Virus record (IMG/VR): IMGVR_UViG_3300045988_137753
Location: 1-58,009 of that record
Length of the DNA stretch: 58,009 bases
Origin: a virus
Strand: one strand, 5' to 3'
In this document: in pieces, positions 37,433 through 58,009 of the stretch
How the letters are laid out: every line of letters starts with the position of its first letter
Position numbering within the stretch: position 1 is the stretch's first letter
Translations under genes and position numbers: made by a program
The notes under the pieces: generated by a model
What the model saw: only the letters and a program-made list of their open reading frames with translations
Told to the model about the DNA's origin: nothing
The model's database searches: none

Positions 37433-38095
37433 TTATTTATCTAATTTGTACCACATACCAGGTATACATCCATCATATATTTCAGATGTATTATTTGTTG
37501 GTACATGGTATATTTTAACTCCTGTTATCTCTATTCTTTCTGTACTTTTTTCTTTTAGGTACAATGTTATTTTTCTAGTTTCTCCAGCTGATATATTTTG
37601 CTCAACACCATTCCATGGTATACAAGTATTGTTTTTATCATACTCTTTAAAATCTATTTCTAAATAATTTATATCATTTCCTGTATTATTAGTCCATGTA
37701 AATTCAAAACTTGGAGAAATTTCATCATCTAGATAAGTTTTTTCTATACTATCAAGTTGTTTAGCTATATATTTTTCAGCTTCTACTTCATTTCCACTAT
37801 AATTTTCAGGTATTTTTAAATTTACACCATTTTGATAATATTTAGCTTCTTCTTCTATTTTCCAGTCGTGGTTATCTAAAAAATTAATCTCATCTTCTGT
37901 TAATAACTTTCTATATGCTTCTGTTAATTCATTTCCTTCTAATCCTTTTAAAGTGGCAATTCTATCTTTTTCAGTCATATGTTTTTCTTCTTTTATAGAG
38001 CTTTCAGCTTTATTCTTATTTATATTATTACTACAACCTACCATACTTACTGCTAATATACTTGCTGCTAATATGCTTGTTATTCTTTTATTCAT
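37433..38095 (-). CDS. lipoprotein (moron)
   Basis: Signal peptide with lipobox AVSMVG-C; RBS AGGGGG 9 nt before the fourth-codon ATG. Confidence 0.7.
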   Translation of the reverse strand: MNKRITSILAASILAVSMVGCSNNINKNKAESSIKEEKHMTEKDRIATLKGLEGNELTEAYRKLLTEDEINFLDNHDWKIEEEAKYYQNGVNLKIPENYSGNEVEAEKYIAKQLDSIEKTYLDDEISPSFEFTWTNNTGNDINYLEIDFKEYDKNNTCIPWNGVEQNISAGETRKITLYLKEKSTERIEITGVKIYHVPTNNTSEIYDGCIPGMWYKLDK

Positions 38096-38128
38096 AAATA
38101 ACATCCCCCTTAATAATTTATAAATATT

Positions 38129-38428
38129 CTATTTTGCTTCTATTAACTCCGTTAGCATTAATTCCAAATTTCCATCATCTTCATCAAAACCCCATACTTC
38201 TAAATACTCCGCATTACTGTCTTTATGTCTCCATATACATTCTAAGTAAAAAATAACAGACCCTATATATATTTTGCAGCATTCTACTTTTTCTTCAAAG
38301 GTTTCGCAATCATATAGGTCGTATATTTTTCCTCCCCAACTGTTAATCATATTTGCGGCAGCCACTAATGTTGTTTCATTAGCCATTAAATAATTGAATA
38401 TATTTTTTCTTTGCGTTTCTTTATCCAT
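38129..38428 (-). CDS. hypothetical acidic 99-aa protein
   Basis: ORF 42 nt downstream of the tnpB-like gene on the same strand. Confidence 0.5.
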   Translation of the reverse strand: MDKETQRKNIFNYLMANETTLVAAANMINSWGGKIYDLYDCETFEEKVECCKIYIGSVIFYLECIWRHKDSNAEYLEVWGFDEDDGNLELMLTELIEAK

Positions 38429-38470
38429 TTATTTCACCTCTAACTTATTTATTTTTTTATTATTCTATTT

Positions 38471-39604
38471 TTAATACTGACTTAAGTTAATTGCTGCATT
38501 TAAGTCTCTATCCATTGTATGTCCACATTCAGGGCAGGTAAATATTCTATCTTTAAGTTTAAGTCTATCTTTGCCTGTTCTTGTATGTCCACATTTACTG
38601 CAAGTTTGTGAACTAGGATACCATCTATCAGCCATTACTAATTCTATGCCATATTCTTGTGTTTTATATTGTAATTGTCTTTGGATTTCAAAAAATCCTT
38701 GTTTGCCTATCGCATCTGATAAATGCTTGTTTTTCATCATTCCTTTTACATTTAAGTCTTCTATTACTATCTTTTGAGGTTTCTTTTCTACTAATTGGTG
38801 TGTCATTGTATGTCTATAATTATTTCTAATATCTCTTATTCTATGTTGCAGTTTTAAGATTTGTTTTTCTAATTTGATTATGTTATTAGTTTTATGATAT
38901 GCTTTCCCTTCTTTATTCATATCATATTTTTTACTTACTTGTCTTTGCAATCTTTTTAATCTCTTCTCTAATTTCTTCATCTCAGCAGTTTTGTTAATAT
39001 TCTTATATACTGTACCATCACTAACTATCGCTAAATCTTTAATACCTAGGTCTACACCTAATACAGTTGGATTTAATTCAGGTTTATAATCTTCTTGTTC
39101 TACTCCTACTGATATGTACCAATGCAATCCATCATATGTCACTCTTGGATTAGAGTATTTTTTTACAATAGGTATATAGTTTTTTCTACTTAATTTGACT
39201 ATTCCTATTTTAGGAAGTTTGACTTGATTTTCAGATATTTTTATAGCTTGATAATGTGGCGCAAAGGCTGGAGTTGTTCTATTTCTGCTCTTAAATCTTG
39301 GGTAGGATTTAGCATTGCCCTTTTTTACTTCTCTGAAAAAGTTCTTAAATGCTGTACAAGCATCTGTATAAGCTATAATTAGTGTCATTGCATCACAATC
39401 TTTAAGCCAGTTATTTTCTTTTTTATAAGCGGTTAAATACTTACTCATCCCCATGGCTGATATGAATTTTTCGCCTTTTTCATATCTTTCCTTTTGAAAG
39501 GCTAATGTCCAGTTATATATATGTCTTGCACATCCTGCTTGAAAAAACATTTGTTGTTCTTGTTGTTTATTAGGTTCTAATCTAACTTTGTATGATTTAA
39601 TCAT
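38471..39604 (-). CDS. tnpB: TnpB-type (IS605 OrfB family) RuvC nuclease, array-associated; candidate miniature type-V-like effector
   Basis: KVRLEPNKQQEQ N-terminus, VLGVDLGIKD (RuvC-I), IVIEDLNVKGM (RuvC-II), CSKCGH..CPECGH zinc ribbon, MDRDLNAAINL (RuvC-III). Confidence 0.9.
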   Translation of the reverse strand: MIKSYKVRLEPNKQQEQQMFFQAGCARHIYNWTLAFQKERYEKGEKFISAMGMSKYLTAYKKENNWLKDCDAMTLIIAYTDACTAFKNFFREVKKGNAKSYPRFKSRNRTTPAFAPHYQAIKISENQVKLPKIGIVKLSRKNYIPIVKKYSNPRVTYDGLHWYISVGVEQEDYKPELNPTVLGVDLGIKDLAIVSDGTVYKNINKTAEMKKLEKRLKRLQRQVSKKYDMNKEGKAYHKTNNIIKLEKQILKLQHRIRDIRNNYRHTMTHQLVEKKPQKIVIEDLNVKGMMKNKHLSDAIGKQGFFEIQRQLQYKTQEYGIELVMADRWYPSSQTCSKCGHTRTGKDRLKLKDRIFTCPECGHTMDRDLNAAINLSQY

Positions 39605-39618
39605 TTCTTTTTCCTCCT

Positions 39619-40018
39619 ATACTTGTTATATTTACATTTGTACGCTTCTAAGTTCGTTAACTATTAACTATGTGGTATGGTTTCAATACTTGTTGCATTG
39701 TATATTACATTTGTACATTCTCTTAGTTCTTCATCTATTTGCTCTTTTCTGACTTCGTTTCAATACTTGCTATATTGTATATTACATTTGTACAGAATTA
39801 TTTGAGTATGATAGCTTAATAGTTAATACAGTGTTTCAATACTTGCTATATTGTATATTACATTTGTACTTCTTGAAGAAATCTTGCTTCTCTCCTGGAA
39901 GATACAGTTTCAATACTTGCTATATTGTATATTGCATTTGTACGCTATAGCTTATAACTGTAATGTTATATTGTCCGCAATGTTTCAATACTTGTTATAT
40001 TGTATATTGCATTTGTAC
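39619..40018 (-). CRISPR. CRISPR-like array: five 37-nt repeats plus one truncated repeat, five unique 36-40 nt spacers
   Basis: Repeats GTTTCAATACTTG(C/T)TATATTGTATATT(A/G)CATTTGTAC at 39680-39716, 39757-39793, 39833-39869, 39907-39943 and 39982-40018. Truncated copy at 39619-39643. On the minus strand the repeat ends ATTGAAAC. Confidence 0.8.
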
Positions 40019-40206
40019 TCGTGCAACTTGCAATGCAGTAATGCCAATAGATATAAGTACTGAATAATAATTGTACTAGTTGATATACAAGTACTTTTTA
40101 TTAAGTTTTCAAGGTATCAACATATATCTGTACTAGTTGGTATTACTACAATATAAGTTACTAGCATTGAAAAATATAATAAATTTCTAATAACAAGATT
40201 GTATTA

Positions 40207-40373
40207 GCACAAGTGCAATATACAATATAACAAGTTTCCCTATTCAACGTATCCTCTTTTGCATAAGCTACTCGAGTTGGTATGATACTCCAAGGGCGTA
40301 AATTCGGGTTTGAACATCCCTACATACCGAAATAATCTTTTAAGTGATTATCTTTCGGTTTTTATTCTTTTGT
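40207..40373 (-). ncRNA. candidate tracrRNA-like RNA (anti-repeat 40207-40235 plus structured scaffold)
   Basis: Plus strand GCACAAGTGCAATATACAATATAACAAGT matches 27 of 29 positions of the reverse complement of repeat positions 9-37. The adjacent roughly 130 nt has stems (GTATC..GATAC, AGGG..CCCT, hairpin 40326-40359). Confidence 0.5.
40326..40370 (+). terminator. hairpin plus T-run (terminator-like on the plus strand; 5' stem-loop of the tracr candidate on the minus strand)
   Basis: ACCGAAATAATC / GATTA(TC)TTTCGGT followed by TTTTATTCTTTT. Confidence 0.45.
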
Positions 40374-40380
40374 TACTATT

Positions 40381-40409
40381 ATAATAACATAGTTCTCCAC
40401 TTTGTACAA
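40381..40409 (-). promoter_or_regulatory. candidate sigma-A promoter driving tracr/array/tnpB on the minus strand
   Basis: Minus strand reads TTGTAC-17 nt-TATTAT (overlapping TATAAT). Confidence 0.3.
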
Positions 40410-40476
40410 CCATTTTTGAAAATTTATTTATTTTTTTTCTTCACTATGATACAATTATCTCAAAGGTGGTGATTTT

Positions 40477-40635
40477 ATGGCTTTGAATGAAAATAAAGAT
40501 AGAATTAATCTTGTTATAGAAAAGGAATATAAAGAACAATTGCAAAAATTAGCAAAAGACAATAGAGTAACCTTATCAAACTTTTGTGCAACTGTACTTG
40601 TGAAATATATAGAAAAAAAGAACCAAGAGAAGTAA
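40477..40635 (+). CDS. ribbon-helix-helix (CopG/Arc-like) DNA-binding protein, 52 aa
   Basis: AAGGTGGTGA RBS; RINLVIEKEYKEQLQKLAKDNRVTLSNFCATVLVKYI fits a beta-alpha-alpha pattern; below the ORF track cutoff. Confidence 0.6.
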   Translation: MALNENKDRINLVIEKEYKEQLQKLAKDNRVTLSNFCATVLVKYIEKKNQEK

Positions 40636-40657: not shown

Positions 40658-40864
40658 TTAGCAATTATAATATTTATTTTCTATATTATTATATCTCTTT
40701 AGAAGAATATCATTTTCTCCCCAAAATCTTGCTTCTACTTGGTCAATATCAACTTTTTCTTTACAAATTTCTCTAAATAGATTAATTGCACTTACATAAT
40801 CAGTCCAACCACTATATAGTTCTAAACCTTCATTATTTATCCAACTAACTTGAAAATTATTCAT
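40658..40864 (-). CDS. hypothetical 68-aa protein
   Basis: ORF in track; start coupled to the stop of the upstream small gene. Confidence 0.45.
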   Translation of the reverse strand: MNNFQVSWINNEGLELYSGWTDYVSAINLFREICKEKVDIDQVEARFWGENDILLKRYNNIENKYYNC

Positions 40865-41011
40865 TTATTTGCCCTCCATGTCTTTTAATATTATATTTAC
40901 AAGTTCTTCCTTTGTAAAAAAATCATCTTCTGGATAATATCCTCTTGCATCATAGAAGTATTCTTTTAACATTTCCATGCTAGTTTTTTCTAACATTTCT
41001 TTCATTTTCAT
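40865..41011 (-). CDS. hypothetical 48-aa protein
   Basis: ATG after AAAGGGGGAT RBS on the minus strand; MKMKEMLEKTSMEMLKEYFYDARGYYPEDDFF... Confidence 0.4.
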   Translation of the reverse strand: MKMKEMLEKTSMEMLKEYFYDARGYYPEDDFFTKEELVNIILKDMEGK

Positions 41012-57881: not shown

Positions 57882-58009
57882 ATGAAAAATATTGTTGGTG
57901 CTAAAGAAAATGTGTGCCCTCATTGCCAAGGCACAATGCTATACATAAAAATCAATAAAGCTAAAGTTATTAGTCAATGTAAATGTGGATGTACTATAGA
58001 TGGAAGAGC
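57882..58009 (+). CDS. small zinc-ribbon protein, 5' part (continues at position 3 after circularisation)
   Basis: AAGGGGA RBS; MKNIVGAKENVCPHCQGTMLYIKINKAKVISQCKCGCTIDGR... Confidence 0.5.
   Translation, partial: MKNIVGAKENVCPHCQGTMLYIKINKAKVISQCKCGCTIDGR

Follow-up and report, generated by a model that had tools for sequence, protein, structure and literature searches.

The window analyzed here comprises positions 1-58,009 of IMG/VR record IMGVR_UViG_3300045988_137753, a stretch of 58,009 nucleotides (nt) in which a TnpB nuclease gene, a short CRISPR array and a candidate trans-activating CRISPR RNA (tracrRNA) lie side by side on the minus strand. In the direction of reading, a candidate promoter is followed by an RNA scaffold that includes the RAGATH-18 motif, an anti-repeat, a leader, five repeat-spacer units, a decayed repeat and finally tnpB. 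A preliminary description of the sequence had noted most of these elements and its measurements proved accurate. Thus, a 377-amino-acid (aa) open reading frame (ORF) with every RuvC landmark of TnpB and Cas12 proteins, five 37-nt repeats with unique spacers of 36, 40, 39, 37 and 38 nt, a truncated repeat 14 nt from the nuclease start codon, a 29-nt inverted copy of the repeat ~190 nt beyond the array, and a gap of 42 nt between the nuclease stop codon and the next ORF all were recovered. The locus very probably is a miniature, adaptation-less, type-V-like CRISPR system that is built on an unexpanded IS607-family TnpB and matches the systems termed transposon-CRISPR intermediates (TranC).

The tnpB gene (38471-39604, minus strand) specifies a protein in which the Pfam domains HTH_OrfB_IS605, OrfB_IS605 and Cas12f1-like_TNB were recognized. 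The protein scored 308 bits with the NCBIfam model guided_TnpB, whereas every Cas12 model remained far under its own cut-off; the Cas12f2 model gave 77 bits against a cut-off of 450, which places the protein outside the type V-F family. The best solved relative is ISFba1 TnpB (PDB 8IAZ, 384 aa), with which the window protein is colinear over the full length (E 3e-76). An AlphaFold model of the window protein with a predicted local distance difference test (pLDDT) value of 89.5 gave template modeling (TM) scores of 0.90/0.88 with 8IAZ, 0.80 with ISDra2 TnpB, 0.71/0.58 with LaTranC and 0.66 with AsCas12f. The profile and structural comparisons that had been proposed at the outset therefore both fit an IS607 TnpB and fit Cas12f more poorly. 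The D/E/D triad of the RuvC site and the CxxC..CxxC zinc ribbon are intact in the window TnpB, and the triad is intact in all relatives. The ratio of nonsynonymous to synonymous substitution (dN/dS) for tnpB in comparison with relatives is 0.12-0.26, and the gene is under purifying selection. Overall, the window protein is an intact, unexpanded TnpB of the IS607 type. A match to the Rfam family Histone3 within the gene (38659-38703; 23 bits, cut-off 34) was dismissed as a chance event.

Homologous RNAs in relative loci, which are labeled here with L-numbers, were located with a profile of the window RNA region. In clade A (L001-L006 and L073; 88-95% protein identity), the RNA is situated upstream of the gene and is followed by the array, as in the window. 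The RNA in L007 (72% identity) and in clade B (L009-L019, L034/35, L040 and L065; 62-68% identity) begins right after the stop codon, as in canonical loci, with the array ~180 nt further. Relatives with identities of 49% or less possess the RNA after the gene and no array. Two of the distant relatives, L025 and L050, also encode an IS607 TnpA with MerR and Resolvase domains, and an overlapping TnpA is present in some canonical loci. In a neighbor-joining tree the array-linked TnpBs constituted one clade that is nested among canonical IS607 TnpBs, a position within a TnpB lineage and a size (377 aa) that are as expected for TranC. The order tracrRNA-array-gene in the clade of the window is derived with respect to the order gene-tracrRNA-array of L007 and clade B. 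No TnpA adjoins the window tnpB; the locus is fixed in a single slot of syntenic phages, and has neither the serine-recombinase TnpA nor the multiple copies by which a mobile insertion sequence (IS) is recognized.

The array (39644-40018, minus strand) was delineated by repeat finding, with repeats at 40018-39982, 39943-39907, 39869-39833, 39793-39757 and 39716-39680. Spacers 1 to 5 in minus-strand order are 38, 37, 39, 40 and 36 nt in length, the trailer-most being spacer 5 (39644-39679). The orientation of the array is fixed by the protospacer-adjacent motif (PAM) that protospacers carry on the 5′ side, and sub-threshold matches of the repeats to the Rfam family CRISPR-DR7 also fall on the minus strand. 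The terminal repeat (39619-39643, minus strand) is decayed, with an internal deletion and without the 3′ tag ATTGAAAC, and joins the AGGAGG ribosome-binding site that precedes the tnpB ATG, a fusion which is the same in all clade-A loci. The window tnpB has no promoter of its own. Clade-A tnpB genes are without the TTGACT-17-TATAAT promoter of which a strong copy precedes tnpB in L007 and L008 (3940-4000). As this promoter has been lost and the gene starts right after the decayed repeat, tnpB probably is read through from the array, such that the nuclease mRNA would be a 3′ extension of the precursor of the CRISPR RNA (crRNA). The promoter for the array presumably is located within the 188-nt leader (40019-40206, minus strand), which separates the array from the anti-repeat and is partly conserved with L007.

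The spacers vary between related loci in a polarized manner. There are 77 different spacers, 44 of which are from clade A and L007 and 33 from clade B. Related arrays share spacers at the trailer end and differ at the leader end that is proximal to the tracrRNA. For example, spacer 1 is the sole difference between L009 and L065. The last three spacers are common to L017 and L014, with three additional spacers at the leader end in L017 and one of its own in L014, and L084 and L001 have the last two spacers in common and no others. The possibility that homologous loci bear identical sequences between the repeats, which had been named as grounds for rejecting a CRISPR-like array, thereby is removed. 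A degenerate 26-nt repeat pattern was detected in seven IMG/VR contigs and seven metagenome contigs, all of which bear tnpB, but neither this pattern nor the exact repeat was present in any of 185,579 species genomes. Because the repeat in public data occurs solely next to this tnpB, the arrangement in the window is far beyond chance, and the earlier concern that the 37-nt units might be copies of IS ends or repetitive extragenic palindromic (REP) elements scattered in host genomes also falls away. The conserved association with an array, the varied spacers and the PAM-flanked targets are in keeping with TranC.

The repeats of the window and of clade-A arrays (L001, L004, L084, L086 and L073) are of two subtypes, GTACAAATGY... 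and GTACAAGTTCR..., that are interleaved within arrays, and one spacer is present twice in tandem in L003. These interleaved subtypes and the tandem spacer suggest that recombination between arrays or duplication of repeat units occurs beyond addition at the leader end.

The anti-repeat (40207-40235, minus strand), recognized from inverted repeats, duplex energies and covariation, lies 188 nt from the array, would form the 3′ terminus of the tracrRNA and is complementary to repeat positions 1-29 (27-28 of 29 positions paired; RNAduplex -36.6 kcal/mol). The anti-repeat is directly abutted by the RAGATH-18 motif (40236-40296, minus strand; Rfam RF03064, 65.3 bits, cut-off 44.9, E 4e-12), the core of the old scaffold of a right-end element RNA (reRNA) and also above the Rfam cut-off in relatives. 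Alignment with relatives further revealed the 5′ part of the scaffold (40297-40365, minus strand), including a stem-loop (40358-40327) and a hairpin (40320-40306). The candidate promoter of the tracrRNA (40381-40408, minus strand) was found with a consensus scan and consists of TGTACA, 16 nt and TATTAT with a TG extension. The window locus therefore possesses a RAGATH-18 RNA with conserved flanks beside the gene. However, it does not possess a single RNA after the gene in which the guide is set by the right end of a transposon: the scaffold is ~600 nt upstream of the tnpB start codon and ends in the anti-repeat without tag and guide, and no second copy of RAGATH-18 was found after the window tnpB with Rfam or with the RNA profile.

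The scaffold of canonical relatives extends beyond RAGATH-18 into a short hairpin and then, immediately ahead of the guide, a tail (..GGCAAC, ..GTAAC), which is complementary to the loop of the 5′-flank hairpin (GTTG, GTTA) within the single RNA. The anti-repeat of the array-linked clades seems to derive from the first arm of the short hairpin, whereas the second arm and the tail may be supplied by the repeat. The hairpin loop in the window, GTTCAA (40315-40310), is complementary to the repeat 3′ tag TTGAA(A)C in a predicted pseudoknot. Both contacts co-vary. Cognate duplexes of anti-repeat and repeat have energies of -30 to -44 kcal/mol compared with -9 to -19 kcal/mol for non-cognate combinations of clades. 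One tag-loop pair takes the form C-G in clade A as well as in L007 but U-A in clade B, and all 84 cells of the tag-loop alignment are paired; L019 has a further change from U-A to C-G, and L008 has CAG/CUG. As a one-base bulge in the anti-repeat:repeat duplex of clade B necessitates clade-specific registers, the joint test was conducted on the shared parts. In this alignment of tracrRNA and repeat (14 sequences), 97.4% of cells pair and seven pairs have changed on both sides, values that were reached by none of 500 shuffles and by no slid version. At the level of sequence and covariation, a split guide in which a reRNA-like tracrRNA has its missing stem restored by the crRNA is as in TranC. 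The anti-repeat thus is read as the new 3′ end of a predicted RAGATH-18 guide RNA whose scaffold has moved upstream and whose own guide has been lost. The proposal in the preliminary description that the guide is supplied as a split tracrRNA plus repeat-spacer RNA is strengthened by the fusion of RAGATH-18 with the anti-repeat, the covariation and the lack of an RNA after the gene. A Cas9-like tracrRNA on the plus strand, with a 5′ anti-repeat and with 40327-40358 as terminator, was rejected because this hairpin corresponds to a conserved stem-loop in the 5′ part of the minus-strand reRNA scaffold and because the PAM fixes the sense of the crRNA.

For nine spacers, protospacers were located in those parts of sibling phages that had been retrieved. 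Eight of these protospacers are preceded by TTTA and one by TTCA, compared with a background frequency of 1.5% for TTTA (P = 2e-14 for eight of nine). As the 5′ PAM is on the strand identical to the spacer, the sense of the crRNA is that of the tnpB strand, with the repeat before the spacer as in type V. Targets are also found within the window. Positions 37436-37471 (plus strand) match the duplicated spacer of L003/L080 at 36/36 positions, and 40764-40799 (plus strand) match spacer 5 of L084 at 35/36 positions, each with the PAM TTTA. The protospacers in sibling phages lend support to the presumption in the preliminary description that the system attacks competing phages.

The ISFba1 TnpB reads its transposon-adjacent motif (TAM), AGGAG, through K80, K83 and N121, and Y117 is positioned at the entry of the duplex (PMC11061315). 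At the positions equivalent to K80, K83, Y117 and N121, most canonical relatives have K/N, K, Y and N/Q, whereas almost all array-linked members have M/I, I/V, A/M and P, the exception at the first two positions being L005. In the window the equivalents of K80, K83, N121 and N122 are M, I, P and H, which is not the pattern associated with a G-rich TAM (AGGAG/GAGGG), although the alignment in the TAM-reading loops is less certain than that in the RuvC core. The change in target motif from AGGAG to TTTA may map to four identifiable residues.

The sole window spacer with targets leads to a rival cassette. Exact matches to the first 24 nt of spacer 5, which is the oldest spacer, were found at seven sites distributed over three other IMG/VR phage contigs, with TTTA before each site. 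These 24 nt equal the reverse complement of the repeat, 29 nt in length, that the Cas12f arrays in the three contigs possess (L209 5411-6294, L210 2816-3513 and L211 2940-3431). As TTTA stands before each copy, a TnpB that requires a guide of 16-24 nt could cleave all repeat units of the rival array; no copy of the element with a flanking TTTA is present in the window. The region 2380-5776 of L210 (IMGVR_UViG_3300045988_153789) corresponds to window positions 37433-40480 and is the same slot, with a gene for a ribbon-helix-helix (RHH) protein and the promoter region on one side and ORFs of 99 and 223 aa on the other in both phages. The L210 cassette consists of a tracr-like region with the anti-repeat CACTTAGTTAAT, eleven 29-nt repeats and then a 405-aa nuclease that is a close Cas12f relative (9NZP, E 7e-134; CnCas12f1 8HR5, E 1e-126) and is 28% identical to the window TnpB over the C-terminal half. 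The Cas12f array repeat, which may resemble the type I-B repeat of C. difficile, produced sub-threshold matches only with Rfam DR14.

The targeting appears to be reciprocal. CnCas12f1 has the PAM CCN. The last spacer of L210 (3438-3484) is unusually long at 47 nt, of which 45 nt are 95.6% identical to the RAGATH-18 tracrRNA gene of clade A (L002); the spacer matches window positions 40304-40266 at 87%, with the 5′ flank CCG. In addition, spacer 4 of the Cas12f array in L211 matches window positions 40912-40947 (plus strand) at 36/36 positions with the 5′ flank CCT. Two alternative miniature type V cassettes thus fill one slot and appear to target each other's guide-RNA genes. Alternatively, the matches might be scars of recombination, a reading that is favored by a remnant of a clade-A array trailer in L210 (2735-2790) and by the unusual length of the L210 spacer that matches the tracrRNA gene. 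Spacer 5 of the window fits this alternative less well, as it is inverted in relation to the Cas12f array, starts exactly after TTTA and is of normal spacer length.

Several relatives have guide-RNA ends that are unsplit (L008 5167-5660, L011 2401-2570, L061, L010 5129-5330, L016 2753-2960 and L007 5298-5335). These ends consist of a short hairpin or a full anti-repeat, then the tag ATTAAAAC, ACTGAAAC or ATTGAAAC, and then adjacent DNA. They occur beside a mini-array with truncated repeats in L008, which has three copies of RAGATH-18, or beside a normal array in L010, L016 and L007. The relatives with unsplit ends resemble naturally occurring intermediates of the single-guide and dual-mode kind. 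As L010 and L011 fall within clade B in the tree, some of the unsplit ends possibly are secondary fusions.

Taken together, these features are consistent with the following mode of action. A tracrRNA of ~165 nt would be transcribed from the minus strand between ~40370 and ~40205, comprising the old reRNA scaffold and the 29-nt anti-repeat without a guide. The array would be transcribed from the leader, probably with tnpB behind it. The crRNA, a 37-nt repeat plus spacer, would dock on the tracrRNA at two sites. At the first, base-pairing between repeat positions 1-29 and the anti-repeat would restore the terminal stem that the ancestral guide RNA possessed. At the second, the 3′ tag TTGAA(A)C and the loop GTTCAA would form a pseudoknot, which in canonical relatives is contained in a single RNA. 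The complex of TnpB and RNA would locate a 5′-TTTA PAM with a match to the spacer, and the RuvC site would cut the DNA. As the known targets are sibling temperate phages, the cassette may serve superinfection exclusion or competition between phages. The layout of the locus, its homologies, the covariation, the turnover of spacers, the PAM, the identity of the targets and the purifying selection were observed, whereas boundaries of transcription, RNA processing, cleavage and the agent of spacer insertion are inferred in this scheme.

A number of observations weigh against this scheme or temper it. Sites that resemble the candidate tracrRNA promoter were not more numerous in the consensus scan than in shuffled sequences, although the region is conserved in clade A and L210. 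No terminator was found after the anti-repeat. No promoter was identified with confidence in the leader, where consensus matches are weak and not above shuffles. The covariation derives from few independent lineages, three or four clades, and is good rather than overwhelming. The comparison of the window spacers with other sequences, as had been suggested, succeeded for spacer 5 in phage contigs but over the PAM-proximal 24 nt only. It was unsuccessful for spacers 1-4, which had no match in INPHARED, IMG/VR (exact 24-mers), PLSDB or the fetched loci; the PLSDB search with the window spacers returned a single chance-level match in Bacillus. The spacers of 36-40 nt also are long in comparison with the 20-nt guide with which ISFba1 TnpB performs best (Ren et al., Cell Res 2024, PMC11061315), and 3′ trimming or unused length has to be assumed. 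Finally, no adaptation genes are listed in the phage, which leaves the source of new spacers unexplained.

This last point bears on the alternative that survives best, which concerns the origin of the array and its adaptation and involves the same guidance of TnpB. According to this alternative, the array is a host-type (type I-B-like) mini-array already present on the phage, or a descendant of one, to which the guide RNA of TnpB became fitted later through acquisition of the anti-repeat and retuning of the hairpin loop; neither duplication nor splitting of the reRNA would have produced the repeat. The array would be extended in trans by host Cas1-Cas2-Cas4 and might also be used by host Cas6/Cascade. 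The 37-nt repeats, the 36-38-nt spacers, the GT start and the 3′ tag ATTGAAAC fit a cosmopolitan family of 37-nt repeats ending AACAAGGATTGAAAC. The resemblance was noted in comparison with L089-L208. When genomes were scanned for pairs of such repeat ends separated by 45-75 nt, very diverse bacteria and archaea were among the matches listed, with arrays that end CAAGKATTRAAAC and have a period of 72-75 nt. The best similar repeats among the matches listed have 29 of 37 positions in common with the window, but 13 of those 29 were forced by the search pattern. In L184 (Anaeromicrobium sp., Clostridia), the repeat likewise has 29 of 37 positions in common with clade A. An array of this family in L175 (Chromatium weissei) is flanked by type I-B genes for Cas3b, Cas6b, Cas1b and Cas4b. 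Scores of 28-35 bits with Rfam CRISPR-DR7 point in the same direction but lie under the cut-off of 37, as they do in the relatives' clades, and membership of the repeats in CRISPR-DR7 was not accepted; the resemblance was kept as a lead. Moreover, the absence of the exact repeat from the 185,579 species genomes speaks against capture, as does the fact that canonical scaffolds already end ..AAC in a tail paired with the hairpin loop, such that the tag could descend from the reRNA. Unsplit scaffolds with the same tag also occur in the clade. On balance, capture of a host-type array is possible but the less likely origin.

The polarized turnover and the strict PAM in a phage that has no cas1, cas2 or cas4 among the matches listed nevertheless call for an adaptation machine acting in trans. 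In type I-B systems, the polarity from repeat to spacer is the same and 5′ PAMs are chosen with Cas4. By analogy, new spacers most likely would be supplied in trans by Cas1-Cas2-Cas4 of the host. A broader proposition is that the slot holds either a TnpB/RAGATH-18 or a Cas12f cassette with mutual PAM-flanked spacers and, in addition, that both arrays stem from host-type repeats of the type I-B family which are extended in trans by host Cas1-Cas2-Cas4. This combination is offered tentatively, with doubt outweighing belief. If it is true, the step from transposon nuclease to CRISPR effector here would lie in the adaptation of a guide RNA to a captured array, not in de novo splitting.

That the locus is a decayed relic, either a non-cutting fossil or an RNA-guided repressor like TldR, is very unlikely. 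Domesticated repressor TnpBs of the TldR type occur in phages and spacers 1-4 are without known targets. However, TldRs have lost the RuvC site, whereas the catalytic triad and zinc ribbon are intact here, dN/dS values of 0.12-0.26 denote constraint, and the spacers turn over, have a PAM and match sibling phages perfectly. Least probable of all, and hardly credible, is a chance juxtaposition of a solo IS607 TnpB with an orphan array used by host Cas proteins and a coincidental anti-repeat: orphan mini-arrays are frequent in phages, TnpB genes are common in phages with many canonical copies and the repeats resemble a Cas6-type family, but the repeat never was found without this tnpB, the scaffold no longer has its guide and has acquired a 29-nt anti-repeat whose sequence co-varies with that of the repeat between clades, tnpB has neither an RNA after the gene nor a promoter of its own, and the TAM-reading residues have changed in step with the association with an array.

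The wider genome accords with a phage-borne system. Positions 1-55 are identical to 57955-58009, a 55-nt terminal overlap that is an assembly overlap, and the genome is complete and circular at 57,954 bp with a G+C content of 29%. As Pfam identified portal, terminase, sheath, baseplate and RecT genes together with a tyrosine integrase, the window represents a temperate tailed phage. The cassette is located directly after holin and amidase genes, as read from an annotated relative that is 95% identical. Cas1, Cas2 and Cas4 were not among the matches listed by PADLOC for the 76 window ORFs or by Pfam, although very weak matches remain possible; the module of cas1 and cas2 that accompanies strictly adaptive CRISPR-Cas systems thus is missing among these matches. 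The 58-kb circle, the temperate phage with the nuclease in a slot after the lysis genes and the lack of cas1, cas2 and cas4 that had been described initially are in accord with these findings. The same cassette is present in metagenome contig L086, the length of which is 58,521 bp. The sole named close homologue (95% identical) is from an Intestinibacter sp. assembly, which points to a gut host in the Peptostreptococcaceae, probably Intestinibacter. No near-identical locus was found in INPHARED, where canonical RAGATH-18 elements are common in phages of Staphylococcus and Bacillus and are annotated as such in a few records.

The locus and its relatives matter because nearly all steps from a transposon nuclease to a CRISPR effector are represented in one narrow clade (62-99% protein identity): a canonical single guide RNA, an unsplit scaffold with a mini-array, a tracrRNA that still has a guide end, a fully split tracrRNA with the array after the gene, and the rearranged tracrRNA-array-gene operon. 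The protein is not enlarged at all across this transition. [quoted passage not shown] Turnover at the leader end and a strict PAM without cas1, cas2 and cas4 also raise the question of who performs adaptation for phage-borne mini-systems. For specialists, the value lies in a compact and testable series of intermediates, and in the reciprocal targeting and the adaptation puzzle.

The TranCs are among the closest known systems. As reported (Jin et al., Cell 2025), TranCs possess TnpB-like effectors of ~300-600 aa from IS605 or IS607 lineages, which lie beside CRISPR arrays without adaptation genes and in which the ancestral reRNA has been divided functionally between a tracrRNA and a crRNA. The window locus has the same components: a TnpB-derived effector, an array, no adaptation genes listed and a split reRNA. 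The solved LaTranC is IS605-derived and larger (478-575 aa), and the window protein is only distantly similar to it, with a match over the C-terminal third (E 5e-25; TM 0.71/0.58). The TranC effectors are reported to use both crRNA and reRNA, whereas the window tracrRNA is without the ATTGAAAC tag and guide end and probably is unable to act alone; the tracrRNA of L007 keeps a tag-plus-guide end. The position of both tracrRNA and array upstream of the gene also differs from TranC.

A further parallel is CauTranC9 (TranC clade 9), which is encoded by a Caudoviricetes genome and has a short PAM, a five-repeat array and spacers that match phages, for which its authors proposed superinfection exclusion (bioRxiv 10.64898/2026.03.27.714800). 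Like CauTranC9, the window system is phage-borne and TnpB-sized without REC/WED expansion, and has a short PAM and five repeats. Compared by description, clade 9 has a mean length of 414 aa and a 38-bp repeat versus 377 aa and 37 nt in the window. Furthermore, the CauTranC9 model was compared with ISDra2 TnpB, whereas the window protein is nearest to ISFba1, and no tracrRNA was identifiable in the CauTranC9 clade, whereas that of the window is clear.

The family of nucleases with RAGATH-18-derived reRNA has ISFba1 TnpB as its founding member (Ren et al. 2024, PMC11061315). Members of this family use a single RNA of ~187 nt just after the gene, recognize the TAM AGGAG or GAGGG, and in their canonical form often are linked to a serine-recombinase TnpA (PMC11061315). 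The window TnpB is colinear with ISFba1 TnpB, has the same RuvC triad and is associated with the same scaffold family, namely RAGATH-18 with both flanks. In contrast to the single RNA after the gene, the guide set by the transposon end and the 5′-AGGAG TAM of ISFba1, the window has an upstream guide-less scaffold, an anti-repeat, guides from an array, TTTA as target motif, replaced TAM residues and no TnpA.

TnpB has given rise to type V systems in ~50 independent events, and 40 V-U* branches have been described, mostly with an array but without other cas genes, the array being downstream of the gene (Altae-Tran et al., PNAS 2023, PMC10691335). The window system resembles V-U* and V-F systems in having a RuvC effector, a tracrRNA, a short array without cas1, cas2 and cas4, and a 5′ PAM. 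However, Cas12f proteins (8J12, 8HR5 and 9NZP) have expanded REC/WED domains and are dimers, and the fold of the window protein matches them with TM scores of 0.6-0.7. The array is downstream in nearly all conserved associations of this kind, but is upstream in the window and probably is co-transcribed with the gene.

The suggestion in the preliminary description that the locus is an intermediate between transposon and CRISPR thus is supported, but the intermediate is not unprecedented in view of TranC, V-U* and the preprint on the phage-borne CauTranC9. The mechanism is not new, and the window locus confirms and illustrates the TranC model. What it adds is a very small effector (377 aa), a RAGATH-18-derived tracrRNA with a co-varying pseudoknot, an upstream array, a mapped change from TAM to PAM, unsplit and half-split relatives (L007, L008, L010, L011, L016 and L061), and cross-targeting with a rival cassette.

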